Part shown: positions 1 through 31,565 of the stretch, piece by piece
How the letters are laid out: each line of letters begins with the position of its first letter
Position numbering within the stretch: the first letter of the stretch is position 1
Assembly (NCBI RefSeq): GCF_000014265.1
Contig: NC_008312.1
Coordinates: forward strand, 7,560,001-7,592,000
Origin: Trichodesmium erythraeum IMS101
Lineage (GTDB): Bacteria > Cyanobacteriota > Cyanobacteriia > Cyanobacteriales > Microcoleaceae
Direction of reading: 5' to 3'
DNA length: 32,000 bases
Translations under genes and position numbers: made by a program
Notes under the pieces: model-generated
What the model was told of the DNA's origin: nothing
The model's input: only the letters and a program-made list of their open reading frames with translations
The model's database searches: none

Positions 1-3000
1 TTGAAGATAAGATTTGCATAATTCCTCTAATTTTAACTTCTTACTTACATCCTGTAAAAATTCAGGCATCTGTTGTTGCCATTCTTCCCGGGATGAGAGG
101 TAAGACCCAAACCATTTTTCCCAAATCCAGTTTTGCAGTTCTTTAAGCCCCAACCCTTCGTAAGTATGAACTTTTACCCCATCTTGTCGCAATACAAATA
201 AATAGGTATCGTCGGTGATAGTATAAAAACTCAATATCGCTGTGGTGGGCTCCTGGATCAATGCTTGAATTTTTGGAAATTCCAGTGGGGCAACTTGAAT
301 TCCCTCTGCTAATACCCGGTCGAAGCTGCGGATTTTTTTATAAACTTCCTGCTTTTTGGCTTCTAATTCCCCAATGCGTTTGTTTCTGGCTTCTGTCGCA
401 GCTCGCCCCCTAGTTGCTACAGCTAAATCTTTCGACTCTATTTGACTGCCCTTTTGTTGTTGTTCCCAAAGTTGATTAATTTGCTGTTGAATAGCTTCGT
501 GTTCTTTTAACCGTTCTTCAACTTCTCCTGGCATTTCACCTTGGGAGTAGCGATCGTTACTTGCCATTATGTCTACTAACCGTTTGGAGCGAGAACGCTC
601 TACATATTCTAAGGCTTTTTCTATTTGATCGCTATTCACGTAAGCTTGTACTATCTTGCGGTAGACACCTATAGACTCTTCGATGATTTCTTGGCGACGG
701 TCGTCATCTTTTGACCAACTGCGGCTGAGTTCCACTGCGGTTATGGCTTTTTTATAGTTGTCGGCGGCGAGTTGCCAGTTTTGGTTGTCGAAATATAGGT
801 TGCCTAGGTTGTTGGTGGTTTGGAGGTGGTTGATGGGGTCTGCTTCTAGGGTGCGCACCAGCAAAGCTTGTTCGTATGCAGCAATGGCGGCTTCAATATT
901 TTCGGCTTTGTCTCCCCTTATTCTGTAAATGTAGGCAAGGCCGAGATTATTTTGAGTTTGTGCCCATTCCATGGGGAAGTCAGTTTGGGTGCGCACCAGC
1001 AAAGCTTGTTGGTATGCAGCAATGGCAGCTTCAATATTTTCGGCTTTGTCTCCCCTTATTCTGTCACTGTAGGCAATGCCGAGATTATTTTGAGTTTGTG
1101 CCCAGTCGATGGGGAAGTCAGTTTGGGTGCGCACCTGCAAAGCTTGTTCGTATGCAGCAATGGCGGCTTCAATATTTGCAGCAATGGCGGCTTCAATATT
1201 TTCGGCTTTGTCTCCCCTTATTCTGTCACTGTAGGCAAGGCCGAGATTATTTTGAGCTGCTGCCCAGTTGATGGGGAAGTCAGTTTGGGTGTACACCAGC
1301 AAAGCTTGTTGGAATGCAGCAATGGCAGCTTTAATATTTTGGGCTTTGTCTCCCCTTATTCTGTCACTGTAGGCATTGCCGAGATTATTTTGAGTCATTG
1401 CCCATTCCATGGGGAAGTCAGTTTGGGTGCGCACCAGCAAAGCTTGTTGGTATGCAGCAATGGCAGCTTCAATATTTTCGGCTTTGTCTCCCCTTATTCT
1501 GTCACTGTAGGCAATGCCGAGATTATTTTGAGTTCTTGCCCAGTTGATGGGGAAGTCAGTTTGGGTGTACACCAGCAAAGCTTGTTGGTATGCAGCAATG
1601 GCAGCTTCAATATTTTCGGCTTTGTCTCCCCTTATTCTGTCTCTGTAGGCAATGCCGAGATTATTTTGAGTATTTGCCCAGTCCATGGGGAAGTCAGTTT
1701 GGGTGCGCACCAGCAAAGCTTGTTGGAATGCAGCAATGGCAGCTTCAATATTTTCGGCTTGGTCTCCCTTTATTCTGTTACCGTAGGCAGAGCCGAGATT
1801 ATTTTGAGTATTTGCCCAGTCCATGGGGAAGTCAGTTTGGGTGCGCACCAGCAAAGCTTGTTGGCATGCAGCAATGGCGGCTTCAATATTTTCGGCTTTG
1901 TCTCCCCTTATTCTGTTTCTGTAGGCAGCGCCGAGATTATTTTGAGTCATTGCCCAGTCCATGGGGAAGTCAGTTTGGGTGTACACCAGCAAAGCTTGTT
2001 GGTATGCAGCAATGGCGGCTTCAATATTTTCGGCTTTGTCTCCCCTTATTCTGTCACTGTAGGCAATGCCGAGATTATTTTGAGTCATTGCCCAGTTGAT
2101 GGGGAAGTCAGTTTGGGTGTACACCAGCAAAGCTTGTTGGAATGCAGCAATGGCGGCTTCAATATTTTCGGCTTTGTCTCCCCTTATTCTGTCTCTGTAG
2201 GCAGCGCCGAGATTATTTTGAGTCATTGCCCAGTCCATGGGGAAGTCAGTTTGGGTGTACACCAGCAAAGCTTGTTGGCATGCAGCAATGGCAGCTTCAA
2301 TATTTTCGGCTTTTTCTCCCCTTATTCTGTCACTGTAGGCAGCGCCGAGATTATTTTGAGTCATTGCCCAGTCGATGGGGAAGTCAGTTTGGGTGAACAC
2401 CAGCAAAGCTTGTTGGTATGCAGCAATGGCGGCTTCAATATTTTCGGCTTTGTCTCCCCTTATTCTGTAAAAGTAGGCACCGCCGAGATTATTTTGAGTC
2501 ATTGCCCAGTCGATGGGGAAGTCAGTTTGGGTGTACACCAGCAAAGCTTGTTGGCATGCAGCAATGGCGGCTTCAATATTTTCGGCTTTGTCTCCCCTTA
2601 TTCTGTTTCTGTAGGCAGCGCCGAGATTATTTTGAGTCATTGCCCAGTCCATGGGGAAGTCAGTTTGGGTGTACACCAGCAAAGCTTGTTGGTATGCAGC
2701 AATGGCGGCTTCAATATTTTCGGCTTTGTCTCCCCTTATTCTGTAAAAGTAGGCACCGCCGAGATTATTTTGAGTCATTGCCCAGTTGATGGGGAAGTCA
2801 GTTTGGGTGTACACCAGCAAAGCTTGTTGGAATGCAGCAATGGCGGCTTCAATATTTTCGGCTTTGTCTCCCCTTATTCTGTTTCTGTAGGCAATGCCGA
2901 GATTATTTTGAGTTCCTGCCCAGTCCATGGGGAAGTCTGTTTGGGTGCGCACCAGCAAAGCTTGTTGGTATGCAGCAATGGCAGCTTCAATATTTTCCGC

Positions 3001-3648
3001 TTTGTCTCCCCTTATTCTGTCTCTGTAGGCAGCGCCGAGATTATTTTGAATAGTTGCCCAATTTTCCCGGTGACTCTTATGTGTAAAAACCTTTAGCACT
3101 ACTTCATAACCTGCAATGCTAATTTCCATGTTGTTTGCTTGGCTGCCCAGAGGAAATTGCTGAATGAGGTTACTTAACTCACCAACACACATAGCAATGT
3201 ATTCTGCTACACCCGCCTCCGCTTCAGAAAATTTAGCAGTTGCCCAGTTTCGCAATATATCAGCAAAGTTATCATCAAGTTTATCTAAGTTTTGCTGCAG
3301 GAATGGGTAGACAACCTTCGAGTCACCTTTGCTTTCTGCAGTTGCCTCCAATACCTCTTCTAAGAAATTAAAATATTCTGCCGATGAGTAATGAGTTGAG
3401 GGAGAATATTCTGAAATTTCTAGTAACTCTACAAGCTGACTCCTGAGATGACGTAAAAAATTAGCAGCGTTTTGAGCATTTTCGTCATCGTTTTCTGCCA
3501 GTTGTTGTGCGTAAAGTTCCATTATTTCCAGTAACCCTTCATCTACCAACTCTTGGTTGGCTTCGAGGATTTTTTCTACCTCACCGCTGGGGGAATTTAG
3601 CAGTTGGTTAATGAGGTTGACGTATGCTTCTATGCGTTTGTTGTCCAT
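1..3648 (-). CDS. Large TPR-repeat protein, truncated at its 3' end by the window edge; probably TPR-CHAT family (CHAT domain itself not in window)
   Basis: Absent from the ORF track because it runs off the left edge. My minus-strand translation from ATG 3648-3646 reads [54 protein letters not shown]... It continues into 16 tandem 46-aa units such as [46 protein letters not shown]. It then reads ...[31 protein letters not shown]...[16 protein letters not shown]...[30 protein letters not shown]... and stays open to base 1 (3648 = 3 x 1216). The final segment resembles the linker that precedes CHAT domains in cyanobacterial TPR-CHAT proteins. Confidence 0.8.
   Translation of the reverse strand, partial: [1216 protein letters not shown]
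851..3083 (-). repeat. 16 tandem 138-bp coding repeats (46-aa TPR-like units) inside the TPR gene
   Basis: The motif gtgcgcacc/gtgtacacc recurs at 851, 989, 1127, 1289, 1427 ... 2945. The period is exactly 138 bp apart from one unit lengthened by 24 bp. Several units are near-identical at nucleotide level (for example 2418-2555 versus 2694-2831). Confidence 0.95.
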
Positions 3649-3976: not shown

Positions 3977-4768
3977 TTATTCCCCCTCCCAAATTTTCAC
4001 CAACTTATTAATCAAATCTTCTGCCAAGTCACTCAACTTAACATCCCTATCCTGAACATCATCCTCCTTGAGATTTGCCATAAAATTACTAGCTAATTCT
4101 TCTTTCTCATCATCCAAATATGTCACAAACAAACTCTTAGTAGCAGCTCGCCACTCATAACTTTTTTTAGTCCGATATATCCACTCCAACTGAGCAATAA
4201 TATTAGTAAAATTATCCATCGCCAACCTATCTTTAACCCTAGAAAAAACCGGGTCAACCTCAGCAGAAAAAGCAGAATTAGCAGACTCTAAACGTTGTAA
4301 ACATTCAAACAAAACCTCTATATGTTCCAACTCATCAACCTCCAACTCTTCCGGCATTTCCTCCGGATCATCCATAGGCAAAAACCCCAATATTTCCCCA
4401 AATTGTAAACTCTGATCTAACCGAACCAAAATATAACCAATTCTATCCTCAAAAACCTCTAGGGGCAACTCTATTTTATCCTGTTCAGGTAATACAAAAC
4501 GACATTCCAACTTACCTCGATCAACAACAACCAAATCCGCCACATTCTGATAAAAACGGATTGCCGGATTCCAAAAATCAGAAGCCTCCAAATCAGTTTT
4601 AATATCCATCATTTTCAGGAAATTATCTACAGCATAAACCACCAAAGTATTCAGATAAACTTGAGTCTTTTTTTCCGAATTAGGTTGTTGAGCCGCAAAC
4701 TTTTGAGCAGAACTATGAGCCTCCATAGGGATAGGAATATTAATAGCATCATTATCTGTAATAGTCAT
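3977..4768 (-). CDS. DUF1822-family protein (cyanobacterial, function unknown)
   Basis: 263-aa ORF. N-terminal pattern ...AQKFAAQQPNSEKKTQVYLNTLVVYAVDNFLKMMDIKTDLEASDFWNP...GKLECRFVLPEQDKIELPLEV..DRIGYILVRL...ILGFLP matches my memory of DUF1822 proteins. Its ATG overlaps the upstream stop codon (TAATG). Confidence 0.7.
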   Translation of the reverse strand: MTITDNDAINIPIPMEAHSSAQKFAAQQPNSEKKTQVYLNTLVVYAVDNFLKMMDIKTDLEASDFWNPAIRFYQNVADLVVVDRGKLECRFVLPEQDKIELPLEVFEDRIGYILVRLDQSLQFGEILGFLPMDDPEEMPEELEVDELEHIEVLFECLQRLESANSAFSAEVDPVFSRVKDRLAMDNFTNIIAQLEWIYRTKKSYEWRAATKSLFVTYLDDEKEELASNFMANLKEDDVQDRDVKLSDLAEDLINKLVKIWEGE

Positions 4769-5499
4769 TATTTTTCTCCTGAAAGTTCTTGATAAATTTT
4801 CCGCAAAAGTGGTTTACACTTTCTGTTCCAATGAGCCGTCAAAGTTCCCAGAGGTACCTTTAATTCTTCCGCAATATCCTTCTGTATTTGGGGAGGATCC
4901 ATGAAGAAATTCCGTCGAGCAATTTCCCCACAAGTACATTGAGGATATTTTTTAGGATGACAACCCAACTTTTGAACTTCTGCTGATAGTTTATCCCCAA
5001 AATCTTGTTGACTTAAACTTTCCATCGGTTCCGGAAAATTACCAGCAATAACATCTTCTAAAGTAGGTATATTTAAATCATTATTCCCACCATAAATGGG
5101 TGCATCAAGAGAAGCTTCCCTCTGAGCTTTTTGCTTATATTCCTGATATAAATCAAGAATTCTGTATCTAAGACCCAAACCATAATTATTCTTTCTATAA
5201 TTAATCCATAATCTCAAACTATGTAAGAAATTTTTTCCCCTTTTTGGGTCAAACTCCTGACATATTCTTTGAGACAATTCTAACTGAATCTCTTGTAACA
5301 AATCTGGGTACTTTGGGTGTTGAGATGTAGCAAGTATTTTAGACTTTAAAATTCCGGTCCATAAAACATCAAAAGCTCTATGCCATTCCTGGCTTCCTGG
5401 AGTTTCCCCACAGAAATTAGCGATCGCTCCACAGAGTAAATCATTATCAGCCATTTCATTATAAACTTGAGTTAGAGAGACATATTTTGATATTACCAT
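4768..5499 (-). CDS. Sigma-70-like / HTH (region-4-like) protein, divergent
   Basis: 243-aa ORF with ATG start. The C-terminal segment CGEIARRNFFMDPPQIQKDIAEELKVPLGTLTAHWNRKCKPLLRKI looks like a sigma-70 region 4 helix-turn-helix. A 1-nt stop/start overlap links it to the DUF1822 gene. Family call is from pattern memory only. Confidence 0.6.
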   Translation of the reverse strand: MVISKYVSLTQVYNEMADNDLLCGAIANFCGETPGSQEWHRAFDVLWTGILKSKILATSQHPKYPDLLQEIQLELSQRICQEFDPKRGKNFLHSLRLWINYRKNNYGLGLRYRILDLYQEYKQKAQREASLDAPIYGGNNDLNIPTLEDVIAGNFPEPMESLSQQDFGDKLSAEVQKLGCHPKKYPQCTCGEIARRNFFMDPPQIQKDIAEELKVPLGTLTAHWNRKCKPLLRKIYQELSGEK

Positions 5500-5566
5500 T
5501 TAATTAATTCCAACTGTACCATAAAAAATCTTAATTTTTCCTAAAAATAGTCAGTATTCTTGAAGT

Positions 5567-5720
5567 ACAAAACCCCACAAAATAATCTCATTTATCAAAA
5601 AGTTTTCAACTTAAAAAACCAGTAATTAACCCACCCCCATCACCTCCCAAGAGAAGAGTAAAAATCATCAGTTAAGTTGATGCACAAAACCCCAGAAAAT
5701 AACATCATTTATCAAAAAGT
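5567..5720 (-). promoter_or_regulatory. Two 37-nt direct repeats upstream of the sigma-like gene
   Basis: acaaaaccccacaaaataatctcatttatcaaaaagt (5567-5603) and acaaaaccccagaaaataacatcatttatcaaaaagt (5684-5720). About 33/37 identical, 117 bp apart, in the 352-bp spacer between the 4-TM gene and the sigma-like gene. Confidence 0.4.
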
Positions 5721-5851
5721 ACCAGTTCCCAACATAGTCAAATAAATCCTTCCCAGAAAAGACACCCGCACTTGAGAAATTGCCCTATCAACCCTGAATT
5801 TTAGGCAGAAAAACCAAAACCAGAAAACAAAAAATAATACCAAAACCAACC

Positions 5852-6799
5852 TCAACTTGATGGTTTTCCAGATATAGACAACTGCTCATAATAAACATCA
5901 TCAAAATAAACATTAATAGGCACAAACGTAACCTTACTTGTAAAATTTTGATTATGGTAATTAACCGCCGCCTCATAATTTTTACAAGCATGAGTAAAAT
6001 GATATTTTTCCTGATAAAAAATCCTCTTGTATCTGCGCAACTTATATTGCCGACGTAAATAGTTAATTCTAAACCAAAAAAAAGCAAAAGCATTTTGATA
6101 GCGATCGTAACCATAAACCACACCAGCATCAGTCACATAAGCCAAAATTCCCATCGCCAACAACAAAATTATTTCATACAACTCAGGAGGCCACTCCTCC
6201 CCAGTATAGAGAGCAACAGAAGTACCAAGCAACATCGCCGGAGTTACCCAAACAATAGTATTAGCCAGCCTTTGCCAAAGTATAACTTCATCACGAGAAG
6301 AAGGAGACATTTGAGCCGAAAACAACTGAGAACAAACCCCCAACTCAAACAAAACAATAACAAAAGGCAACAATATAGCCGCAACAGTAACAGCAAAAGA
6401 CCCTGGAGGAAATGCCTGGGACGCCAAATATTCCACAGGTTGTTTAATTAAAACAAAATTGATCACCAAAACAGCAATAAAAAACGACAGCATAAAAAAA
6501 TAACCAAGAGTTGTCCTAATACCCTTCCTCAAAAACTCCGGATATTCTTGTTTCAACCGTGCCAACTCATTCTCAGTTTCTAACTTTCTTTCTCGAGTTT
6601 CCCCTGCCTTATAAAAATGCTTAAACCTCAACGACGCAAGCTGACGGATATGATCAAGCGATCGCCTCTCATCTATTTCCCTGTTAGGCCTTTCCCTCTC
6701 ATCCTCATCTTGTTGTTTCCACCCTGCTAACTTTTTATAGTAGTCTTCTTTTGCCGACTGAAAATTTTGACCTTCCTCACCCAAAGACGAATTATGCAT
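5852..6799 (-). CDS. Integral membrane protein: charged coiled-coil N-terminus, 4 predicted TM helices, aromatic/basic C-terminal tail
   Basis: The ORF track starts at TTG 6805. The first ATG is at 6799-6797, 2 nt after the vWA gene stop, with AAGGGAGA upstream. Hydrophobic stretches: GYFFMLSFFIAVLVINFVLI, FAVTVAAILLPFVIVLFELGV, IVWVTPAMLLGTSVALY, IILLLAMGILAYVTDAGVVYG. No family recognised. Confidence 0.65.
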   Translation of the reverse strand: MHNSSLGEEGQNFQSAKEDYYKKLAGWKQQDEDERERPNREIDERRSLDHIRQLASLRFKHFYKAGETRERKLETENELARLKQEYPEFLRKGIRTTLGYFFMLSFFIAVLVINFVLIKQPVEYLASQAFPPGSFAVTVAAILLPFVIVLFELGVCSQLFSAQMSPSSRDEVILWQRLANTIVWVTPAMLLGTSVALYTGEEWPPELYEIILLLAMGILAYVTDAGVVYGYDRYQNAFAFFWFRINYLRRQYKLRRYKRIFYQEKYHFTHACKNYEAAVNYHNQNFTSKVTFVPINVYFDDVYYEQLSISGKPSS

Positions 6800-6801
6800 A
6801 C

Positions 6802-7707
6802 TCAATTTTCTCCCTTATTCACCTGAGTAACCAAATACCGAAAAGCAGCAGGTACAGACTCAAAAGCCTTGTGCTCAATATTTTCAAATATCCCCTTACC
6901 TCCCGCGCCATTTACTAACAAAACCTCAGCATTACTCTTAAACTCCACAGGTTGAACGCCAACATTATCCAAACCATCAGTAATAAAAACAGCAAACTTT
7001 TGAGGTGTTTGTCTCCAAGTCAGATCACTTTCCCCTAAAAATAACTTAGCACGGTTAATTCCTCCTTGAATATCACTACTCCCACAATTAACAGGACGTG
7101 CTAAAATAGGTTTAACTTGAGTTGTGAGAAACTCATTAATTTTTTCCTCACTCTGACTGTGCCACTCTTGCACCGAATTATTATGATCAGCCAAAATTTG
7201 CAGATCATTTTGACGTAGAGTTTTATATTTAACTAACTCTTGTTTATACTGATCCTTTTCCTTCCTATATGTAAAAGCATTACCTTTATTTTTTGGTTCA
7301 ACAGGTGGAACTGGATGATGAAAAACCACTTTTTCCAACAAAGGTTGTTGTTCCACCCTAACCCTTTCTAGGGGGCGGTTACTGTCATCACAAAAATTTC
7401 CTACTGCTAGCTCCCCACCATTAATTTTTAATAGCCGCAAAGATGACTGAACATCTTGGGTTTTTGGTCCTTCGATGCGACTCCAGTCAGCACTAACCGT
7501 CTTATCTATTAGAATGACCACTTTAACCGGAGTTGACCGGGCTTGGTTTTGCAAAGCATTTTTGACTTCTGGTAAAGGTTCAGATATAATAGGAGATGTA
7601 GTCTTAATAGAAGTTTTGCCATCAACTTTTCCGGCACAGCTTGCTATGGATAAAATAGTTGATATAATAATCAGAATACCATATATTTTAAGAATAGTTA
7701 CAATCAT
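6802..7707 (-). CDS. Lipoprotein with von Willebrand factor A (vWA)-like fold
   Basis: Signal peptide with lipobox (ILSIAS|C). vWA-like strands VKVVILIDKTVS (DxTxS MIDAS-like) and FAVFITDGLDN. A coiled-coil insertion lies between them. Its stop is adjacent to or overlapping the start of the next gene. Confidence 0.6.
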   Translation of the reverse strand: MIVTILKIYGILIIISTILSIASCAGKVDGKTSIKTTSPIISEPLPEVKNALQNQARSTPVKVVILIDKTVSADWSRIEGPKTQDVQSSLRLLKINGGELAVGNFCDDSNRPLERVRVEQQPLLEKVVFHHPVPPVEPKNKGNAFTYRKEKDQYKQELVKYKTLRQNDLQILADHNNSVQEWHSQSEEKINEFLTTQVKPILARPVNCGSSDIQGGINRAKLFLGESDLTWRQTPQKFAVFITDGLDNVGVQPVEFKSNAEVLLVNGAGGKGIFENIEHKAFESVPAAFRYLVTQVNKGEN

Positions 7708-7766
7708 TGTTTTTTAGCTCAAAGTGTTGATCCTTAAGTTGATAAATTTGCCTGATGTCAAACCGT

Positions 7767-9990
7767 AAATTATCTGTTCTATTTATTTAACAGCTTGAAA
7801 AAGAACTAACTTTGCAAACTTCAAAAAAAATTTAGCTGAAAATTCTGCCATGACTGCAAATTATCTGTTCTATTTATTTAACAGCTTGAAAAAGAACTGA
7901 CTTGGCAAACTTCAAAAAAAATTTTAGCTGAAAATTCTGCCATGACTGCAAATTATCTGTTCTATTTATTTAACAGCTTGAAAAAGAACTGACTTTGCAA
8001 ATTTCAAAAAAAAATTAGCTGAAAATTCTGCCATGACTGCAAATTATCTTTTCTATTTATTTAACAGCTTGAAAAAGAACTGACTTTGCAAACTTCAAAA
8101 AAAATTTAGCTGAAAATTCTGCCATGACTGCAAATTATCTTTTCTATTTATTTAACAGCTTGAAAAAGAACTGACTTGGCAAATTTCAAAAAAAATTTTA
8201 GCTGAAAATTCTGCCATAACTGCAAATTATCTGTTCTATCTGTTTAACAGCTTGAAAAAGAACTGACTTTGCAAACTTCAAAAAAAATTTTAGCTGAAAA
8301 TTCTGCCATGACTGCAAATTATCTGTTCTATTTATTTAACAGCTTGAAAAAGAACTGACTTGGCAAATTTCAAAAAAAATTTAGCTGAAAATTCTGCCAT
8401 GACTGCAAATTATCTGTTCTATTTATTTAACAGCTTGAAAAAGAACTGACTTTGCAAACTTCAAAAAAAATTTTTAGCTGAAAATTCTGCCATGACTGCA
8501 AATTATCTGTTCTATTTATTTAACAGCTTGAAAAAGAACTGACTTTGCAAACTTCAAAAAAAATTTAGCTGAAAATTCTGCCATGACTGCAAATTATCTG
8601 TTCTATTTATTTAACAGCTTGAAAAAGAACTGACTTGGCAAATTTCAAAAAAATTTTTAGCTGAAAATTCTGCCATGACTGCAAATTATCTGTTCTATCT
8701 GTTTAACAGCTTGAAAAAGAACTGACTTTGCAAACTTCAAAAAAAAATTTAGCTGAAAATTCTGCCATGACTGCAAATTATCTGTTCTATTTATTTAACA
8801 GCTTGAAAAAGAACTGACTTGGCAAATTTCAAAAAAAAATTAGCTGAAAATTCTGCCATGACTGCAAATTATCTGTTCTATTTATTTAACAGCTTGAAAA
8901 AGAACTGACTTGGCAAATTTCAAAAAAAATTTAGCTGAAAATTCTGCCATGACTGCAAATTATCTGTTCTATTTATTTAACAGCTTGAAAAAGAACTGAC
9001 TTTGCAAATTTCAAAAAAAAATTAGCTGAAAATTCTGCCATGACTGCAAATTATCTTTTCTATTTATTTAACAGCTTGAAAAAGAACTGACTTTGCAAAC
9101 TTCAAAAAAAATTTAGCTGAAAATTCTGCCATGACTGCAAATTATCTTTTCTATTTATTTAACAGCTTGAAAAAGAACTGACTTGGCAAATTTCAAAAAA
9201 AATTTTAGCTGAAAATTCTGCCATAACTGCAAATTATCTGTTCTATCTGTTTAACAGCTTGAAAAAGAACTGACTTTGCAAACTTCAAAAAAAATTTTAG
9301 CTGAAAATTCTGCCATGACTGCAAATTATCTGTTCTATTTATTTAACAGCTTGAAAAAGAACTGACTTGGCAAATTTCAAAAAAAATTTAGCTGAAAATT
9401 CTGCCATGACTGCAAATTATCTGTTCTATTTATTTAACAGCTTGAAAAAGAACTGACTTTGCAAACTTCAAAAAAAATTTTTAGCTGAAAATTCTGCCAT
9501 GACTGCAAATTATCTGTTCTATTTATTTAACAGCTTGAAAAAGAACTGACTTTGCAAACTTCAAAAAAAATTTAGCTGAAAATTCTGCCATGACTGCAAA
9601 TTATCTGTTCTATTTATTTAACAGCTTGAAAAAGAACTGACTTGGCAAATTTCAAAAAAAATTTTAGCTGAAAATTCTGCCATGACTGCAAATTATCTGT
9701 TCTATTTATTTAACAGCTTGAAAAAGAACTGACTTTGCAAATTTCAAAAAAAATTTAGCTGAAAATTCTGCCATGACCCTAAATTATCTGTTCTATTTAT
9801 TTAACAGCTTGAAAAAGAACTGACTTGGCAAATTTCAAAAAAAAATTTAGCTGAAAATTCTCCCATGACTGCAAATTATCTGTTCTATTTATTTAACAGC
9901 TTGAAAAAGAACTGACTTTGCAAATTTCAAAAAAAATTTAGCTGAAAATTCTGCCATGACCCTAAATTATCTGTTCTATTTATTTACATC
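7767..9990 (+). repeat. Tandem array of about 24 copies of a 91-93 bp unit (not CRISPR: no spacers)
   Basis: Unit: aaattatctgttctatttatttaacagcttgaaaaagaactgactttgcaaacttcaaaaaaaatttagctgaaaattctgccatgactgc. The internal ATG/ATA recurs at 7850, 7942, 8033, 8124, 8216 ... 9865, 9956. The last copy merges into ORF 9956-10168. Confidence 0.97.
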
Positions 9991-10168
9991 AACTTTCATA
10001 TCCGTAGACCACAGCAGGGAAGTTTCCCTACCCGAGATAAAACGCATTTTTGTTATGCAACGTCCAGACCTACAACATCCCTACAAAGTTATAGTTATAG
10101 CGATACCATTAACCCCCTCCTCAGTCAAACAAAAGGAAATGGCCATTATTTCTAAACTGCTAGCATGA
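9956..10168 (+). CDS. Small hypothetical ORF (70 aa); its first 10 codons are the template of the tandem repeat
   Basis: MTLNYLFYLF... is shared with the repeat-unit mini-ORFs. No recognisable family and no clear Shine-Dalgarno sequence. Confidence 0.3.
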   Translation: MTLNYLFYLFTSTFISVDHSREVSLPEIKRIFVMQRPDLQHPYKVIVIAIPLTPSSVKQKEMAIISKLLA

Positions 10169-10337
10169 ACTAAATTTAAGACGAGTAACAATTTTCTAAC
10201 AGTAATCGAAACTGCTATAACTTGTGATATAAAAAGAAAATCTAGTTATAGTATCTTATCTTAAGTTTTCGGCTACCGCCGACATAAACTGGACGACATG
10301 AACAGCAATTCTGTATATTTTAAATTTAGTATTAAAT

Positions 10338-11768
10338 ATGAAAAAAACTCTATTTTTAAACCCCCCTTCCTTTGATGGTTTCGATGGAGGAGCCGGAGCC
10401 AGATATCAAGCCAAACGAGAAATCACCTCATTCTGGTATCCAACCTGGTTAGCTCAACCTGCTGCCCTAGTTCCCGGAAGTAAATTAGTAGATGCTCCTG
10501 CTCATTATCAAACCGTAGAAGATGTACTGAAAATTGCTAAAGACTATGAACTAGTAATTATGCATACCAGTACCCCTTCCCTCCCCAATGACATTAAATG
10601 TGCAGAAGCAATTAAAAATCAAAACCCTGAGACAAAAATAGGTTTTGTTGGCGCCCATGTAGCAGTTTTACCAGAAAAAACTCTCAAAGATCATCCAATA
10701 ATTGACTTTGTTTGTCGCAACGAATTTGATTATACCTGTAAAGAATTATCCCAAGGAAAACCTTTTGCAAAAATTAAAGGATTGAGTTATTATGATACCC
10801 AAGGTAATATTCACCATACCCCAGAACGAGAATTAATTCATGACTGGGATGCCATGCCCAGTGTTTTTCCAGTTTATGCAGAACATCTCAATATTCGTAA
10901 CTATCTAATTGGTTATTTACTTAATCCTTATATATCCTTATATACAGGACGAGGTTGCCCTGCTAAATGTACTTTTTGTTTGTGGCCACAAACTATTGGC
11001 GGACATCAATATCGGGCTAAAAGTCCAGAAGCAGTAGGGCGAGAAATGGCAGAGGCCAAAGCAATTTGGGGTAGCTCCGTGCGAGAATACTTTTTTGATG
11101 ACGATACCTTTACCATTGATAAAAAACGAGCGATCGCCATTAGCGAACATTTACAGCGACTGAAGCTAACCTGGAGTTGTAATGCTCGTGGGAATTTAGA
11201 TTATAATACCCTCAAAGAATTGAAAAAAAACGGACTACGTTTGCTATTAGTCGGTTTTGAATCTGGAAATCAGAAAATTTTGGATGGAGTCAATAAAGGA
11301 ATTAAATTAGAAGTAGCCCGGAAATTTATGGAAAATTGCCATAAGTTAGGAATTAAAGTTCATGGAGCTTTCATTCTCGGTTTACCCAATGAGAGTCAGG
11401 AAACTATTGAGGAGACCATCCGTTTTGCTTGTGAAGTCAACCCCCATACAATTCAAGTTTCCATTGCTTCCCCCTATCCAGGAACAGAATTATATACTCA
11501 AGCAGAGAAAAATGGTTGGTTTACTGGAGACTCTTTAGTTGCTAGTTCTGGAATTCAAATGTCCGCATTACAGTACCCTCATTTGTCAGGTAGTGAAATT
11601 GAAGATGGAGTGGAACAGATGTATCGACGGTTTTATTTTAGACCCAAGTCTATCATTCCTATAGTTGGTGAAATGTTAGCAGATCCACAAATGTTAGTAC
11701 GTCGTTTACGGGAAGGCAAAGAATTTTTGTCTTACCTGAGAGAGCGTCATCAGAGAGCATTGACTTGA
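10338..11768 (+). CDS. hpnJ: B12-binding-domain radical SAM protein, HpnJ-like (hopanoid biosynthesis associated)
   Basis: 476 aa. N-terminus MKKTLFLNPPSFDGFDGGAGARYQAKREITSFWYPTWLAQPAA matches my memory of HpnJ. Radical SAM cluster motif CPAKCTFC (CxxxCxxC). GFESGNQ motif present. Confidence 0.7.
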   Translation: MKKTLFLNPPSFDGFDGGAGARYQAKREITSFWYPTWLAQPAALVPGSKLVDAPAHYQTVEDVLKIAKDYELVIMHTSTPSLPNDIKCAEAIKNQNPETKIGFVGAHVAVLPEKTLKDHPIIDFVCRNEFDYTCKELSQGKPFAKIKGLSYYDTQGNIHHTPERELIHDWDAMPSVFPVYAEHLNIRNYLIGYLLNPYISLYTGRGCPAKCTFCLWPQTIGGHQYRAKSPEAVGREMAEAKAIWGSSVREYFFDDDTFTIDKKRAIAISEHLQRLKLTWSCNARGNLDYNTLKELKKNGLRLLLVGFESGNQKILDGVNKGIKLEVARKFMENCHKLGIKVHGAFILGLPNESQETIEETIRFACEVNPHTIQVSIASPYPGTELYTQAEKNGWFTGDSLVASSGIQMSALQYPHLSGSEIEDGVEQMYRRFYFRPKSIIPIVGEMLADPQMLVRRLREGKEFLSYLRERHQRALT

Positions 11769-12183: not shown

Positions 12184-13545
12184 CTAAACCCAATTTAAAT
12201 TAATTAAAAAATTAGCAATTCTTTTAGCCGCACCTGAGCCTCCCATTCTTTTAACACCATTTTTAGCAATTAAGCGCCGTTGCTCTAAGTTATCTAACAA
12301 AGACTTAACTACACCACAAACTTCTCTAGGATCTTTAACCAGAATTTGAGAAATTCCTAAAAGGCGACTTTGATTTTCTGCAAAAGTGGATGTAAACTGT
12401 GGACCCTTGCCAGGAATAGCGATCGCTGGTTTCCCTAAACCGACAAATTGTTCTGTAGCCGTACCTGCCATAGCAATAGCTAAATCTCCCTGATGTATAA
12501 ATTCTTGAAAAGCCTGTTGATTTAAAATCAGACTTGCATTTTTATTCTGAGAAATAAATTTTATGGGAAAATGAATACTTTTTTCTCTAAAACAAAAAGT
12601 TAGTTCAGGTTTATCAGTTGGCATTTGTAAAATACTGTTTTGGTTCTGAGTTAGAATTTCTTGTTCAGTTTGCCAATTATCAAACAAAAGCTGTTTAGTA
12701 AAAGCTTCCAAATCTAAATTAGGAGCGATCGCTGCCAGAAACAAAAACTTTTTTTGTGGAAAGCTTTCGAGCAACCCTGTCACTGCCTGAAGAATAATTT
12801 GCCAATTGGCATAAGCTTCTGGAGAACGAGACCCTGGTAACAAAGTAATTGTTAATTGATCATGCATCTCTAGCATCCGGGCTTTATTACCAGACATTAA
12901 CTCCATAGAGCTTTTTAACTTGACACCATCCATCATCGGGTTTCCCACACAATAAGCTCGAATAGACTTTTTCTTTAACATTTTTGCTGTTAAATCATCT
13001 CTAGCAAGGACTGCCCCACATTTCTTTCTACTCATTAACCAACGTTCCCAAGGAAAATAGACTGACCCTGAGGAAAGCAGGAAACTTTCCACCCAAGACC
13101 TAGGGAGAAGTTGCTCATTTTGATCTCGAATCAGATATTCAGATTTAGCAGTTCCTAAAAAAGTATAAGGTGCTCCACTTAACCAAGCAAATAATAAAGG
13201 CACAATATCCCCAACTGCCAAAATAACTACTTGATGACCATCATTAGTTTGATCACTTATCCAAGATCTTAATGCTTTCAACTGAGCCAAAACAATACTT
13301 AACAAACCACTTTTAACATCTCGCCATAACTGCTTTCCATCCATATAAATAAATCCACCAGAAGGCATTCTTTGTCGGGGGCCAATAATTGAGAAGTCAG
13401 CTATTGTATAAGCTTGTCCTTCTCCCACTATCGGTAAAGCAACAAGATCAGGAGGAAGAGGATATTTTTTGAGTTCTTGCAAAATTTGAGACCCGATCAC
13501 ATCTTCTCCGTGACCATTACTCACGCAAAGTATTTTTAAGGTCAT
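12184..13545 (-). CDS. Lipid-A-disaccharide synthase (LpxB)-related glycosyltransferase-like protein
   Basis: 453 aa. N-terminus ILCVSNGHGEDVIGSQILQEL...ALPIVGEGQAY and C-terminal ...AMAGTATEQFVGLGKPAIAIPGKGPQFT resemble the cyanobacterial LpxB-related family. Call is from pattern memory only. Confidence 0.55.
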   Translation of the reverse strand: MTLKILCVSNGHGEDVIGSQILQELKKYPLPPDLVALPIVGEGQAYTIADFSIIGPRQRMPSGGFIYMDGKQLWRDVKSGLLSIVLAQLKALRSWISDQTNDGHQVVILAVGDIVPLLFAWLSGAPYTFLGTAKSEYLIRDQNEQLLPRSWVESFLLSSGSVYFPWERWLMSRKKCGAVLARDDLTAKMLKKKSIRAYCVGNPMMDGVKLKSSMELMSGNKARMLEMHDQLTITLLPGSRSPEAYANWQIILQAVTGLLESFPQKKFLFLAAIAPNLDLEAFTKQLLFDNWQTEQEILTQNQNSILQMPTDKPELTFCFREKSIHFPIKFISQNKNASLILNQQAFQEFIHQGDLAIAMAGTATEQFVGLGKPAIAIPGKGPQFTSTFAENQSRLLGISQILVKDPREVCGVVKSLLDNLEQRRLIAKNGVKRMGGSGAAKRIANFLINLNWV

Positions 13546-13546
13546 A

Positions 13547-13574
13547 TCAGTTATCAGTTATCAGTTATCAGTTA
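13547..13574. repeat. Heptamer microsatellite (TCAGTTA) x4, STRR-like
   Basis: tcagttatcagttatcagttatcagtta, directly abutting the ATG (13545) of the LpxB-related gene. Confidence 0.9.
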
Positions 13575-14766: not shown

Positions 14767-15161
14767 GGGGCATTAACGGTTTCGACAGGGTGGTGAAATC
14801 TGCTTTGTGATGCAGGCCGAGAGTGAGTCTTCTCTCGAAAATCCTGGACTCAAAAAATAATAAGTGCAAACAACATTGTACCTTTTGCTCGTAAGCAAGT
14901 AGCTGCTCTAGCTTAATTGCAAAAACACCTCTTATAGGTTCGAGCGTCTGTGGTTTGACTCCGTTAATAATTGCAGACTTAACCCCAACGGATGCTCTAG
15001 CAATTTTTCTCTGGTTACCTGCTAGTTAAGATTTAACCAGAGCATCCCACTATCCGGGATAATGGATAGTCCCAGCTCTGAGGGTTAAGAAGGGCTAAAC
15101 CTGTGAATGAGTGAAGGGTGAATAGCCATTTTGGACATGGGTTCGACTCCCATATGCTCCA
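14767..15161 (+). ncRNA. ssrA: tmRNA (SsrA), one-piece form
   Basis: 5' GGGGCATTAACGGTTTCGACAGG. 3' GGACATGGGTTCGACTCCCATATGCTCCA. The acceptor stem pairs GGGGCAT with ATGCTCC and includes the G3-U pair. Tag reading frame 14866-14916 encodes ANNIVPFARKQVAALA followed by TAA, a typical cyanobacterial ANNIV... tag. Confidence 0.93.
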
Positions 15162-15184
15162 TACATTAGTTATAAGTCTCTCCA

Positions 15185-15812: not shown

Positions 15813-15943
15813 AAAAAAAAGTCCCTCAACAAATTTCAGTTAAGAGACGATAACTATCAGGGTGCATCTACTAAACGTAGTGTAACACCCCTGAAGGGTT
15901 AGACCCCCTATTTTTATATTTAAATATTTAATGTTACTAATAA
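15813..15943 (-). ncRNA. Candidate small RNA gene (copy 2)
   Basis: Minus strand has a perfect TATAAT (15955-15950). About 130 nt downstream is the hairpin GUCUCUUAAC-N8-GUUGAGGGAC followed by U8. This stem needs G-U wobbles on the minus-strand RNA; the same positions would be A-C mismatches on the plus strand. Internal hairpins: CAGGGGUG..CACCCUG, CUAC..GUAG, GGGU..ACCC. Confidence 0.35.
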
Positions 15944-15962
15944 TCAAAAATTATATCTTAGC

Positions 15963-16095
15963 AAAAAAAAAAGTCCCTCAACAAATTTCAGTTGAGAGAC
16001 GATAACTATCAGGGTGCATCTACTAAACGTAGTGTAACACCCCTGAAGGGTTAGACCCCCTATTTTTATATTTAAATATTTAATGTTACTAATAA
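15963..16095 (-). ncRNA. Candidate small RNA gene (copy 3)
   Basis: Same architecture as copy 2. TATAAT at 16107-16102 on the minus strand. Terminator hairpin GUCUCUCAAC-N8-GUUGAGGGAC followed by U10. Confidence 0.35.
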
Positions 16096-16120
16096 TTAAA
16101 AATTATATTTAGTCAATATC

Positions 16121-21798: not shown

Positions 21799-24700
21799 TT
21801 ACATTCCTACCACATCCCAATTTGAATGGAAACCTCCGGGGTTAACTATAGTATCACGTGTGCCATCATCTTTCATCAACCAAATCTTGTTAGCTACATT
21901 TTCAGTACGCCAGAGAATGTCTGCCACTCCATCAGTATTGAAATCTGCGACTCCAGCGACATCCCAATCTGAATGGAAACCTCCAGGGTTAACTATACTA
22001 TCCCGTGTGCCATCATTTTTCATCAACCAAATCTTGTTAGCTCCATTTTCAGTACGCCAGAGAATGTCTGCCACTCCATCAGTATTGAAATCTGCGACTC
22101 CAGCGACATCCCAATTTGAATGGAAACCTCCAGAGTTAACTATACTATCCCGTGTGCCATCATTTTTCATCAACCAAATCTTGTTAGCTCCATTTTCAGT
22201 ACGCCAGAGAATGTCTGCCACTCCATCAGTATTGAAATCTGCGACTCCAGCGACATCCCAATCTGAATGGAAACCTCCAGGGTTAACTATACTATCCCGT
22301 GTGCCATCATTTTTCATCAACCAAATCTTGTTAGCTACATTTTCATGACGCCAGAGAATGTCTGCCACTCCATCAGTATTGAAATCTGCGACTCCAGCGA
22401 CATCCCAATCTGAATGGAAACCTCCAGGGTTAACTATACTATCCCGTGTGCCATCATTTTTCATCAACCAAATCTTGTTAGCTCCATTTTCAGTACGCCA
22501 GAGAATGTCTGCCACTCCATCAGTATTGAAATCTGCGACTCCAGCGACATCCCAATTTGAATGGAAACCTCCAGGGTTAACTATACTATCCCGTGTGCCA
22601 TCATTTTTCATCAACCAAATCTTGTTAGCTCCATTTTCAGTGCGCCAGAGAATGTCTGCCACTCCATCAGCATTGAAATCAAACTGCACGGGAGCTTTGT
22701 TTTCCGTGATATTTACAGTGACATCACTTATACTGATACCATTGTAGTCTCCATCGCTATTGCTAACGTTATGACTAATTATACTGGTGTGATAACTTTC
22801 ATTCTCTCTGTCTTTTTCTGCTTCAACAGTAATGGTTTGAGGAGTATCCCAGTTGGCATCTGTAAAGGTTATAGAGTTGATTTTTTTGACCTCTGCATCT
22901 GTGGTAAAATCAATGGTTACATCTGAAGTAGGCTCAGTTTCAAGAACTATCTGATAAGTATCTGTGGTACCACCTTCAGTTACATCAGTACTGCCATCAG
23001 TTTCGGTAATAGTGACCCCAGGAGTTGAAGTAGTTATGGTGGTTTCAATAGTCAGCTCATAACTACCAAAGCCGGAACCAGAACCGCTACCTTCCGTATT
23101 GGGGTCGTAAGAGCTATTCATCTCACCACTAATACCCAAATAGAACGTGCCGGTTTCCGGAGCAGAGAAAGTACCTTGACCAGGCTCGCTTCCTGGGTTC
23201 CTAGGAATCTCATTTCCTGTAGAGTCAAACACTCGCACTGTCGCCATACCCATGGGCATGTTCTTTTCATCGAACAATTCTGGCAAGTTAAAGTTAACTT
23301 TTTCCCCAATGTAGAGGTCGAACTTAAATAGGTCTACATCTTCCTCTTGTAGGATATTGGTATTGTCGCCGACTTCGCCACTAAAGTTGTAGATGCCTGG
23401 GTTGGTCAAATTTAGTCCGGTGTCGGTGGCATCCGTTAAGATGTCGTTGGCTTCCTCATTTCCCATAGTCCGACCCATGGTTTCAATAGTCAAGTCATAA
23501 CTACCAAATCCCAAACCAGAACCGCTACCTTCGGTATTGGGGTCGTAAGAGCTATTGCCATCACCACTAATACCCAAATAGAACGTGCCGGTTTCCGGAG
23601 CAGAGAAAGTACCTTGACCAGGCTCGCTTCCTGGGTTCGTAGGAATCTCATTTCCTGTAGAGTCAAACACTCGCACTGTCGCCATACCCATGGGCATGTT
23701 CTTTTCATCGAACAATTCTGGCAAGTTAAAGTTAACTTTTTCCCCAATGTAGAGGTCGAACTTAAATAGGTCTACATCTTCCTCTTGTAGAATATTGCTA
23801 TTGTCGCCGACTTCGCCGCTGAAGTTGTAGATGCCTGGGTTGGTCAAATTTAGTCCGGTGTCGGTGGCATCCGTTAAGATGTCGTTGGCTTCTTCATTTC
23901 CCATAGTCCGACCCATGGTTTCAATAGTCAAGTCATAACTACCAAAGCCGGAACCATAACCGCTACCTTCCGTATTGGGGTCGTAAGAGCTATTCATCTC
24001 ACCACTAATACCCAAATAGAACGTGCCGGTTTCCGGAGCAGAGAAAGTACCTTGACCAGGCTCGCTTCCTGGGTTCCTAGGAATCTCATTTCCTGTAGAG
24101 TCAAACACTCGCGCTGTCGCCATACCCATGGGCATGTTCTTTTCATCGAACAATTCTGGCAAGTTAAAGTTAACTTTTTCCCCAATGTAGAGGTCGAACT
24201 TAAATAGGTCTACATCTTCCTCTTGTAGAATATTGCTATTGTCGCCGACTTGGCCGCTGAAGGTGTAGATGCCTGGGTTAGTCAAACTTAGCCCAGTGTC
24301 GGTTGCTTCAGTTAAGGTATCGTTGGGTTCCCCATCTCCCATAGTCCTATCAATAGTTTCAATAGTCAGCTCATAACTACCAAAGTTGGAACCAGAACCG
24401 CTACCTTCGGTATTGGGGTCGTAAGAGATATTGCCATCACCACTAATACCCAAATAGAATGTCCCTGGTTCCGGAGTCAAGAAAGTACCTGTACCTGCTT
24501 CAGTTCCATAGTCCCAATCAATCTCTATACCTGTGGAGTCAAACAGTCGCACTGTGGCCTGGCCAATGGGGGAGTTATTTTCATCTAACAATTCTGGCAA
24601 GTTAAAGTTGACTTCTTCGCCGATGTCGAGGTCGAACTTAAATAGGTCTACATCTTCCTCTTGTAGAATATTGCTATTGTCGCCGACTTGGCCACTGAAG

Positions 24701-27700
24701 GTGTAGATGCCTGGGTTAGTCAAACTTAGCCCAGTGTCGGTTGCTTCAGTTAAGGTATCGTTGGGTTCCCCATCTCCCATAGTCTTATCAATAGTTTCAA
24801 TAGTCAGCTCATAACTACCAAAATTGGAACCAGAACCGCTACCTTCGGTATTGGGGTCGTAAGAGATATTGCCATCACCACTAATACCCAAATAGAATGT
24901 CCCTGCTTCCGGAGTCAAGAAAGTACCTGTACCTGCTTCAGTTCCATAGTCCCAATCAATCTCTATACCTGTGGAGTCAAACAGTCGCACTGTGGCCTGG
25001 CCAATGGGGGAGTTATTTTCATCTAACAATTCTGGCAAGTTAAAGTTGACTTCTTCGCCGATGTCGAGGTCGAACTTAAATAGGTCTACATCTTCCTCTT
25101 GTAGAATATTGCTATTGTCGCCGACTTGGCCACTGAAGGTGTAGATACCTGGGTTAGTCAAACTTAGCCCAGTGTCGGTTGCTTCAGTTAAGGTATCGTT
25201 GGGTTCCCCATCTCCCATAGTCCTATCAATAGTTTCAATAGTCAGCTCATAACTACCAAAGTTGGAACCAGAACCGCTACCTTCCGTATTGGGGTCGTAA
25301 TAGCTATTGCCATCACCACTAATACCCAAATAGAATGTGCCTGCTTCCGGAGTCCAGAAAGTACCACCTGGTTCAGGTCCATAATCCCAATAGTCCCAAC
25401 TAATCTCATATCCTGTGGAGTCAAACAGTCGCACTGTGGCCGGGCCATTGGGGTTTTCATTATCAACCCACAATTCTGGCAAGTTAAAGTTGACTTCTTC
25501 TCCGATGTCGAGGTCGAACTTAAATAGGTCTACATCTTCCTCTTGTAGAATATTGCTATTGTCGCCGACTTGGCCACTGAAGGTGTAGATACCTGGGTTA
25601 GTCAAACTTAGCCCAGTGTCGGTTGCTTCAGTTAAGGTATCGTTGGGTTCCTCATTTCCCATAGTCCGACCGATAGTTTCAATAGTCAGCTCATAACTAC
25701 CAAAATTGTAACCATAACCACTACCTTCGGTATTGGGGTCGTAATAGCTATTGCCATCACCACTAATACCCAAATAGAATGTGCCTGCTTCAGCAGTCCG
25801 GAAAGTACCACCTGGTTCAGGTCCATAATCCCAATAGTCCCAACTAATCTCATATCCTGTGGAGTCAAACACTCGCACTGTGGCCGGGCCATTGGGGTTT
25901 TCATTATCAACCCACAATTCTGGCAAATTAAAGTTGACTTCTTCGCCGATGTCGAGGTCGAACTTAAATAGGTCTACATCTTCCTCTTGTAGAATATTGC
26001 TATTGTCGCCGACTTGGCCGCTGAAGGTGTAGATGCCTGGGTTCGTCAAACTTAGCCCAGTGTCGGTTGCTTCAGTTAAGGTGTCGTTGGGTTCCTCATT
26101 TCCCATAGTCCGACCGATAGTTTCAATAGTCAGCTCATAACTACCAAAATTGTAACCATAACCACTACCTTCGGTATTGGGGTCGTAATAGCTATTGCCA
26201 TCACCACTAATACCCAAATAGAATGTGCCTGCTTCAGGAGTCCAGAAAGTACCACCTGGTTCAGGTCCATAATCCCAATAGTCCCAACTAATCTCATATC
26301 CTGTGGAGTCAAACAGTCGCACTGTGGCCTGGCCATTGGGGTTTTCATTATCAACCCACAATTCTGGCAAGTTAAAGTTGACTTCTTCGCCGATGTCGAG
26401 GTCGAACTTAAATAGGTCTACATCTTCCTCTTGTAGAATATTGCTATTGTCGCCGACTTGGCCACTGAAGGTGTAGATGCCTGGGTTAGTCAAACTTAGT
26501 CCAGTATCGGTCGCTTCAGCTAAGGTGTCGTTGGGTTCATCCCCAATTCGAGAACCTGTAGTTTCAATGGTTAAGTCATAGTTGCCTGCTATAGAACCAT
26601 AACCACTACCTTCTATATTGGGGTCATAATTTGTATTACCAGTACCACTAATGCCAAGATAGAATGTACCTATTTCTAATGCTTGATAGGTAAGAGAGTT
26701 AGGGTCTGGGTAAGAAGATAATGATATATGGCTTCCTGTAGAATCAAACAATCTGATTTCAGCATTACCAACAAAATTACCGTCATCATCCAATATTTCT
26801 ACATTCGAGGATAAACTAACTGTTTCTCCTGCATCCAAGTCAAACTTAAATAAATCTACATCATGTTGTTGCAGGAGATTAGTGTTGTCACCAATTTTAC
26901 CAGAATATGTATATGTACCTGGGTTAGTTAGGGTAAGTCCAGTGTGAGTCGCTCGTGTTATAGTATCATTTGGTTCTTTAAATATAATCGAAACTACATC
27001 GTCACCTCCAAGTGCTGAAATTGGATAATTGTTGATTGTCCGTAAAAGTGTGCCAAAGCGATCAAATACATCGATGTTAGCTGAGCTGTTGTTACCTATA
27101 TAAATCTCGTTATCAACAACAGCAACTCCATTGCTATTGTTAGAGATAGAAAAAGAATTGGTAACTAAACCTGTTGTCGGATTTATTTCTAAAAGTTGTT
27201 CTGGATATTCATTAATTGCTAGTAAGGCATTAGGCCCTGTAATTCCTGCTAGTCCTCGACTTAGTGATACGGGGAAGTTATTAATTCCATCAATATCTAA
27301 CGTCCTAGTAACTTCATCTATTACAGGATCGAACTCCAGAATATCCCCGTCCCCATAGTCTAATATATAAACCTTTCCTTCCAGAACTGCTAAACCTTCA
27401 AAAACACCATAATCAGAAATGGGATCGCTATCCCTTACTGCTCCTGTATCTGGGTTTAGTTCCCATAGCTTGGTACTGTAACCATTATTCTCAACAAAGA
27501 ATAAACTATTACCGTCAAAAGCTAAACCTTTACTTTCTGATGAAAATGTTTCGGGGGCTAAGAAATTATTAATTTCTTCTCCTGTTTCAGGGTTTAACTC
27601 AACTATTTGATTAGAACCGTCATCCTTAAAAGCAAACAAGCGTTCGCTCTCAATTTGACCCATCTGCCGACCAATAGTTTCAATAGTTAAGCCATAGCTA

Positions 27701-31516: not shown

Positions 31517-31565
31517 ATCAGTTTTCAATTATCAGTTTTCAGTTACCAGTTTTTAGTTTTTGATA
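31517..31565. repeat. Degenerate heptamer-type repeat (CAGTTTT / CAGTTAC / TAGTTTT)
   Basis: atcagttttcaattatcagttttcagttaccagtttttagtttttgat, about 110 bp upstream of the trypco2-like gene. Confidence 0.7.

Follow-up and report, generated by a model that had tools for sequence, protein, structure and literature searches.

A 24-unit minisatellite between a vWA-fold gene and hpnJ in Trichodesmium erythraeum IMS101, apparently built from the upstream region of the vWA-fold gene

What is the tandem array that fills the spacer between the divergent genes Tery_4963 and hpnJ of Trichodesmium erythraeum IMS101, where did its ~91-bp unit come from, and does it act on the genes around it? Nitrogen fixation by T. 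erythraeum is of global importance, and about 40% of its genome is non-coding, for reasons that are debated. The locus lies in a 32,000-nucleotide stretch of the chromosome (NC_008312.1, positions 7,560,001 to 7,592,000), hereafter the window, whose own numbering is used throughout; Tery_4963, which encodes a protein with a vWA fold, heads a leftward gene cluster, and hpnJ is read rightward. An initial annotation, made from the letters of the window, had offered reiterated promoters, leaderless mini-genes, a protein-binding or titration array, or bent DNA as explanations, and had added that no described element matched. The last statement was too strong: the array is a bacterial intergenic minisatellite, or variable number tandem repeat (VNTR), a curiosity of a repeat-rich genome and not a new kind of element. 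The explanation that we favour, with slightly better than even confidence, is a promoter-region minisatellite, in which up to 24 co-directional copies of the region upstream of the vWA operon follow one another with no terminators between them.

The array and its largest internal feature are as follows.
7767 to 9986, no strand assigned: tandem array of 24 units and a partial 25th unit (9965-9986), defined by Tandem Repeats Finder, the unit table and 24-mer matches.
7923 to 8653, no strand assigned: the earlier of two copies of an internal duplication, exact over 731 bp, from sequence comparison.
8930 to 9660, no strand assigned: second copy of the same duplication, from sequence comparison.

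Tandem Repeats Finder reported 24.3 copies with a period of 91 at 7767-9986 (95% matches, 1% indels, score 4008), and anchor-based splitting divided the array into 24 full head-to-tail units of 91, 92 or 93 bp, followed by a partial one of 22 bp at 9965-9986. A 24-mer of the unit had 24 matches in the window, where 100 shuffles gave an expectation of 0.00. The initial annotation had described an array of about 24 units of 91-93 bp filling nearly the whole divergent spacer, and both statements hold: from the start of the vWA gene (7707) to that of hpnJ (10338) the spacer measures 2630 bp, of which the array takes up 2220 bp (84%). The units abut directly with no unique spacers between them, which rules out a CRISPR array, as had been argued. 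The right junction also reads as described, with TATTTATTTA followed by ACAGC within the repeats and by CATCA at the unique flank, and the last partial unit overlaps the ATG and first 10 codons of an open reading frame (ORF) at 9956-10168. In all these respects the locus resembles a minisatellite or VNTR, with head-to-tail units in the range of ~10-100 bp and no spacers, a non-coding location between Tery_4963 and hpnJ, and a copy number that varies across strains and lineages (the second Trichodesmium species discussed below, Dapis and others).

The units are 93-100% identical, and 15 of the 24 are distinct in sequence; they differ in the length of an A(7-9)T(2-5) tract and at about nine single-nucleotide polymorphism (SNP) sites. 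Units 3-9 are identical, in the same order, to units 14-20, and the 731 bp at 7923-8653 (8 units) recur exactly at 8930-9660, an offset of 1007 bp (11 units). The duplication is the mark of a recent unequal exchange, and together with a 183-bp higher-order period, also detected by Tandem Repeats Finder, it indicates a recent expansion of the IMS101 array.

Since an exact internal duplication of 731 bp is hard to resolve, and some contigs carry only 1-2 units, the repeat might have been over-expanded in the reference assembly. We hold this to be the least probable of the explanations considered. Most T. erythraeum-type short-read contigs end within the array, and most independent short-read assemblies break exactly at it, as expected of a long array; the first two IMS101 units are reproduced exactly in GBRTRLIN201, while other strains begin with variant units; and the unit variants follow one another in a definite, non-random order. 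Among T. erythraeum strains the first and last units vary, and short-read contigs do not give their true copy numbers.

The unit has a recognisable counterpart upstream of the vWA gene in other cyanobacteria. We aligned the upstream regions of this gene from six taxa (T. erythraeum, another Trichodesmium, Dapis, a Microcoleaceae metagenome-assembled genome (MAG), Okeania and one Logan contig), and all six shared the succession T-run, TTGCA, CTTCAA, CGTTAAGTAATT and AGAACAGATAATTTACGG, then a conserved leader and the ATG, with the conserved block at a fixed distance from the start codon. Two more distant orthologues in the alignment (L110 and L113) had kept only the distal part of the block. 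The divergent spacer of Dapis sp. BLCC M126, likewise between vWA and hpnJ, has a single diverged copy of the unit adjoining the vWA gene, and the Microcoleaceae MAG has the divergent vWA/hpnJ arrangement of IMS101. As read from this alignment, the 91-bp unit is the conserved, elsewhere single-copy DNA upstream of the vWA gene, from GATAAT back to about -95. The two features that join the array to the gene are the following.
7769 to 7774, minus strand: proximal -10-like hexamer GATAAT, inside AGAACAGATAATTTACGG, from its rank as best hexamer (5/6) and its conservation in the six taxa.
7708 to 7766, minus strand: unique leader (putative 5' untranslated region, 5'UTR) of Tery_4963, from the array to the start codon, by homology to the conserved 5'UTR of orthologues.

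The repeat boundary falls 3 nt past GATAAT, which in unit 1 is read on the minus strand from 7774 to 7769, and the unit reaches ~90 bp upstream from there. Of all hexamers in the unit GATAAT is the most -10-like, and it stands once in each, at the unit start, on the minus strand. From its position we predict a transcription start site (TSS) at about 7759-7764 and a ~52-nt 5'UTR for Tery_4963, a length that equals the median 5'UTR of IMS101 (PMC4143802).

On the explanation that we favour, a segment of ~91 bp directly upstream of the TSS of the Tery_4963 operon would have been duplicated in tandem by slippage or unequal recombination; each unit carries the full conserved upstream region, from GATAAT on the minus strand to about -95, with its TTGCA box, T-run and CTTCAA...GTTAA block. 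As the unit has neither a terminator nor a structured RNA, the array would amount to a stack of up to 24 promoter copies facing the vWA/sigma-like/DUF1822 operon. Transcripts from distal copies would read through the proximal ones and carry repeat-containing leaders. We infer that GATAAT may serve as the -10 box, that inner copies may fire and that the output of the operon may change with copy number. Reiterated promoters are the best supported of the options in the initial annotation, with the difference that they would lie on the opposite (minus) strand and use other hexamers (GATAAT) than those proposed there.

The hexamers proposed there were TTGCAA and GAAAAT on the plus strand, and with them goes a quite different explanation, in which the units are rightward promoters or leaderless mini-genes for a 16-residue peptide, MTANYLFYLFNSLKKN. 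Both hexamers and the adjoining A/T tract are indeed present in each unit, an ATG stands 6 nt past GAAAAT in each, most units of both species share a 16-codon ORF that ends at a constant position, and the few substitutions in IMS101 are mostly silent. However, the hexamers lie 20-22 nt apart, with a spacing that varies with the homopolymer, against the 16-18 nt required of a sigma-70 promoter, and no consensus match was found in the array, for which reasons we rejected this pair. As to the peptide, variable columns fall almost evenly on the three codon positions (15/15/14), with no third-position excess, the start codon is lost in several units, and the DNA block is equally conserved in single-copy relatives without such an ORF. 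The apparently silent TTA>CTG double change copies an adjacent 8-mer, TATCTGTT, and is therefore probably one templated event. No ORF of more than 39 residues was found in the array, and on the minus strand the frame of the mini-ORF shifts with homopolymer length. Peptides from mini-ORFs on either strand were ruled out on these grounds, and hpnJ has a conserved proximal element of its own, outside the array. We regard this explanation as very improbable.

The units might instead each be a small-RNA gene like those of the NsiR1 arrays, comprising a promoter, a short RNA and a terminator, and another tandem array of IMS101 does yield the most abundant RNAs of the cell (PMC4143802). Here, by contrast, no terminator-like site was found in the 2.8 kb from 7600 to 10400, single-unit RNA folds on either strand were not more stable than those of shuffles (z from +0.5 to +1.8), and an Rfam search of the unit gave no match at E <= 1. 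Folds of 150 nt, taken across the junction of two units, were only marginally more stable than shuffles (z of -0.2 and -0.9). Genuine NsiR1 copies, such as those present elsewhere in the window, show a clear hairpin and U-run. An array of NsiR1-type genes was ruled out accordingly, and we rate the small-RNA explanation as barely credible. The hairpin CTGTT-N10-AACAG to which the initial annotation had drawn attention does occur in each unit, but its fold is not above chance and AACAG is replaced by AACGG in the sister species.

The same lack of conservation of the CTGTT/AACAG inverted repeat tells against a protein-binding array acting as decoy or titration site, which we put at the same very low level as the small-RNA genes, together with intrinsically bent, structural DNA. 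The 24 copies of blocks conserved across genera could provide operator or activator sites, and the adjacent operon includes a gene for a possible sigma-like protein. Against this, no recognisable binding motif was present; an inspection by eye for NtcA, LexA, Fur, Pho and DnaA boxes, which is no formal test, found none. Phasing of A/T tracts at 10.1 bp was reached by 9.8% of shuffles (p about 0.1), a non-significant result that leaves phased bent DNA, as suggested in the initial annotation, unsupported.

Whether the unit belongs to a dispersed family had also been raised. Exact-pattern scans, which took in viral contigs, JGI metagenomes and species-representative genomes but, of the IMS101 chromosome, the window only, found no other copy, and a profile search of 111 fetched loci matched the vWA locus alone. 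Within that coverage the unit was found at one locus, and with no terminal inverted repeats (TIR) or target site duplications (TSD) visible at the array, it was not classed as a miniature inverted-repeat transposable element (MITE) or as a dispersed repeat like the mycobacterial interspersed repetitive units (MIRUs).

How old is the multi-copy state? In a second Trichodesmium species (MAGs St16_bin2-tuft and others), whose vWA protein is 79% identical to that of T. erythraeum, 3 or 4 units lie directly upstream of the vWA orthologue, and one contig has a second run of at least 4 units. Apart from one pair at 96%, these units are 73-91% alike and 72-85% identical to T. erythraeum units; being as diverged internally as between species, they indicate that the multi-copy state is old. 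The distal units of the second species have AACAG, as in T. erythraeum, and the proximal units have AACG, as in the outgroups, and from this sharing at least two unit lineages seem older than the species split. Compared between strains, as the initial annotation had proposed, copy number does differ among alleles of the second species (4, 3 or less than one unit, against one in Dapis and others).

Several other observations were made on these loci. The two runs of units in the second species are ~300 bp apart (L100, reverse complement of 1-900; L099, 4990-5420), and the interval contains the homologue of the right flank in IMS101, that is, the start of the 70-residue pseudo-ORF. In the distal run two unit types alternate, which gives a higher-order repeat of ~183 bp, as in IMS101. 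Beyond the array, L099 carries sulfotransferase genes, not hpnJ. A MITE-like element with inverted ends CAGGACTTACGCA...TGCGTAAGTCCTG sits in the first unit of some second-species alleles (L108 1-690, L101 and L103), and the same element is also found 5' of hpnJ in MAG_R02 (L019 2063-2152). In a contig of Trichodesmium sp. ALOHA_ZT_67 (L009 4150-4180), codon ~21 of the vWA gene is fused to the middle of a unit across a shared 8-mer, ACAGCTTG, with a 281-residue product, either by a microhomology deletion or by mis-assembly.

The most serious competitor of the promoter stack shares its origin. It holds that the array is a neutral expanded minisatellite, tolerated as junk, with a single copy of consequence, the proximal one, and inner copies that are silent or have no bearing; we consider it a real possibility, clearly less likely than the explanation that we favour. 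In favour of neutrality, natural alleles with few units or a disrupted array are found, the units differ chiefly by slippage in the homopolymer and by a few SNPs, with no sign of selection, and IMS101 is known for abundant repeats (PMC4143802). Neutrality accounts less well for the retention of multi-copy arrays at the vWA gene in two species despite divergence of the units to 73-91%, and for the conserved GATAAT block, which is intact in every unit.

A number of results count directly against a working stack of promoters. The -35 partner of GATAAT is weak (TTCAAG, 3/6, at 19 nt), a strict promoter scan found no consensus sigma-70 promoter within the array, and the 20 strongest TSS listed for IMS101 (Table 1, PMC4143802) include none from the array, an absence that also counts for neutrality. 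In the second species the proximal GATAAT has been lost by a 42-bp deletion, and alleles with the MITE have less than one unit left, from which it follows that the multi-copy state is dispensable. A few T. erythraeum-type metagenome contigs cross the spacer with only 1-2 units, and these may be true low-copy alleles or the result of assembler collapse. Finally, synthetic clusters of tandem core promoters raise transcription with a gain that saturates at about five copies (PMC3311589), so that 24 copies need not add output. By analogy, much of the present length of the array may be neutral even if the promoter stack is real. The strongest form of the latter strikes us as unlikely. In it every one of the 24 units would be an active promoter, perhaps recognised by Tery_4961 (the divergent sigma-like protein of the operon), and the array would act as a promoter amplifier or self-reinforcing switch for a conflict-system-like vWA/DUF1822 operon, as a sink for that factor or as a source of plentiful leader RNA containing repeats. 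Were it true, recombinational change of copy number would tune expression among the many genome copies of the polyploid filament.

Among the closest known systems are the MIRUs, with a unit length of about 40-100 bp. Like the present array, they consist of head-to-tail units of tens of bp, lie in intergenic positions next to operons, differ in copy number between strains or species, and have small incidental ORFs spanning their units (PMC3635867). Unlike them, the array was found at one locus and is not interspersed, its 24 copies are a high number, and what it repeats can be shown to be the conserved (promoter) DNA in front of a neighbouring operon. Within IMS101 itself, a 7-repeat array with units of 736-973 bp produces a ~260-nt non-coding RNA from one TSS per repeat and is highly transcribed (Pfreundt et al. 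2014, PMC4143802). Both arrays are intergenic and tandem, and in both the repeats include a duplicated piece of the region of a neighbouring gene, but the units here are only 91 bp, have no discrete RNA gene and are not in the top 20 TSS (PMC4143802). The NsiR1 array (Ionescu et al. 2010; RF02399) shares with ours direct tandem repeats in cyanobacterial intergenic DNA and possibly one promoter per unit; its units hold a 60-nt structured RNA and a terminator, neither of which is present in the 91-bp unit. Synthetic clusters such as 5CPtacs (Li et al. 2012, as cited in PMC3311589) resemble the array as tandem identical core promoters facing one operon, and their transcription increases with copy number. 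They are engineered, with a gain saturating at ~5 copies, whereas the array is natural, has 24 copies and contains promoters that are putative.

The array provides a concrete route to non-coding DNA, in which the promoter region of a gene is duplicated in tandem without check, and indicates that multiple copies can be maintained across species. Should the copies be active, the array would parallel in nature the tandem-promoter clusters made by engineering and would give a handle on regulation of the vWA/sigma-like/DUF1822 operon; if they are silent, it would be a hypervariable marker useful for Trichodesmium strain typing. The array also explains why short-read assemblies break at the vWA/hpnJ locus.

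The genes on either side of the array, and the features between it and hpnJ, are listed here.
6802 to 7707, minus strand: Tery_4963, vWA fold with an N-terminal unstructured or signal-like region; it opens the leftward cluster and is identical in sequence to ABG53877.1 / Q10V47.
5852 to 6805, minus strand: 317-residue protein, member of the cluster.
4768 to 5499, minus strand: Tery_4961, possible divergent sigma-70-like protein, from weak sigma matches and database names.
3977 to 4768, minus strand: DUF1822 protein, by Pfam.
9956 to 10168, plus strand: 70-residue ORF, its first 10 codons in the last units, probably not a gene; no family matches, unannotated in IMS101.
10216 to 10252, plus strand: hpnJ-proximal conserved element with a promoter-like GTGATA-17-TATAGT, outside the array, from the promoter scan and similarity to relatives.
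10338 to 11768, plus strand: hpnJ, B12-binding radical SAM protein (TIGR03471, 832 bits; ABG53878.1).

The initial annotation had placed a vWA gene and hpnJ at the flanks, and both hold. For Tery_4963 no sequence match was obtained in Pfam, NCBIfam or PDB; the vWA fold is supported by an AlphaFold (AF2) model with a predicted local distance difference test (pLDDT) score of 77, whose top Foldseek matches were almost exclusively vWA domains. The identity of hpnJ follows from the TIGR03471 match. The accessions of Tery_4963 and HpnJ are consecutive, which implies that nothing is annotated between the two genes. We rejected the 70-residue ORF as a gene: it matches no family, and it is not conserved, the frame being broken in the second Trichodesmium species and ~120 bp being deleted in MAG_R02. 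Between it and hpnJ, the sequence CTATAACTTGTGATATAAAAAGAAAATC (10216-10252) is conserved 5' of hpnJ in Trichodesmium MAG_R02 and Okeania and is similar in Dapis, and it is likely the true promoter or regulatory site of hpnJ.

On the left, the gene order of the remainder of the vWA cluster (3977..6805) is the same in relatives. Some databases name Tery_4961 a sigma-70-family protein, and its top Foldseek matches were sigma-70 chains; the latter had E-values of about 0.2-1, the NCBIfam E-values (3e-4 and 7e-3) were far below the family cut-offs, and a PDB sequence search gave no match, leaving a weak case for a sigma factor. PADLOC scans of the four operon proteins found no match, PADLOC has no model for the cluster, and Tery_4962 to Tery_4965 were not mentioned in the literature searched. 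In relatives (L110, L113, L114 and L115) the vWA gene adjoins a DUF1822-TRADD-like N fusion, NACHT/nSTAND1 NTPases and a Tox-PL-2 gene, and these TRADD-N, STAND NTPase and toxin-domain neighbours suggest that the Tery_4960-4963 cluster may be part of a conflict or signalling system.

The window as a whole is unusually rich in tandem repeats. Further long ones lie at 849-3060 (period 138), 21812-22680 (147) and 23042-26538 (438 bp); the first overlaps an ORF at 868-3096, for which orthologous contigs have a TPR-type gene beside a DUF1822 gene, and the other two are within a 3041-residue ORF at 21799-30924. Heptamers run in tandem at 13545-13574 (TATCAGT x4.3), abutting the start codon of an LpxB-related gene at 12184-13545, and at 31517-31560 (TCAGTTT x6). 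We take these heptamer runs to be of the kind called short tandemly repeated repetitive (STRR) sequences in filamentous cyanobacteria. A transfer-messenger RNA (tmRNA) gene (RF00023, 124 bits) is present at 14767-15164 on the plus strand.

About 6 kb from the array, two tandem NsiR1 (RF02399) copies lie on the minus strand at 15814-15873 and 15966-16025, with scores of 48.1 and 46.4 bits, above the gathering score of 39. They form a 152-bp tandem at 15813-16112 and have the conserved 5' part, hairpin and U-run terminator. NsiR1 has been described from heterocyst-forming cyanobacteria, where its tandem arrays lie upstream of hetF (PMC6596454); it is carried here by T. erythraeum although this species forms no heterocysts. 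The sequence GGGGGTCTAACCCTTCAGGGG occurs on the minus strand at 16040-16060 and 15888-15908, about 15-35 nt 5' of each NsiR1 start. Its core, GGGTCTAACCC, appears to resemble the HetR-binding inverted repeat of Nostoc, a likeness that we offer as a lead only.

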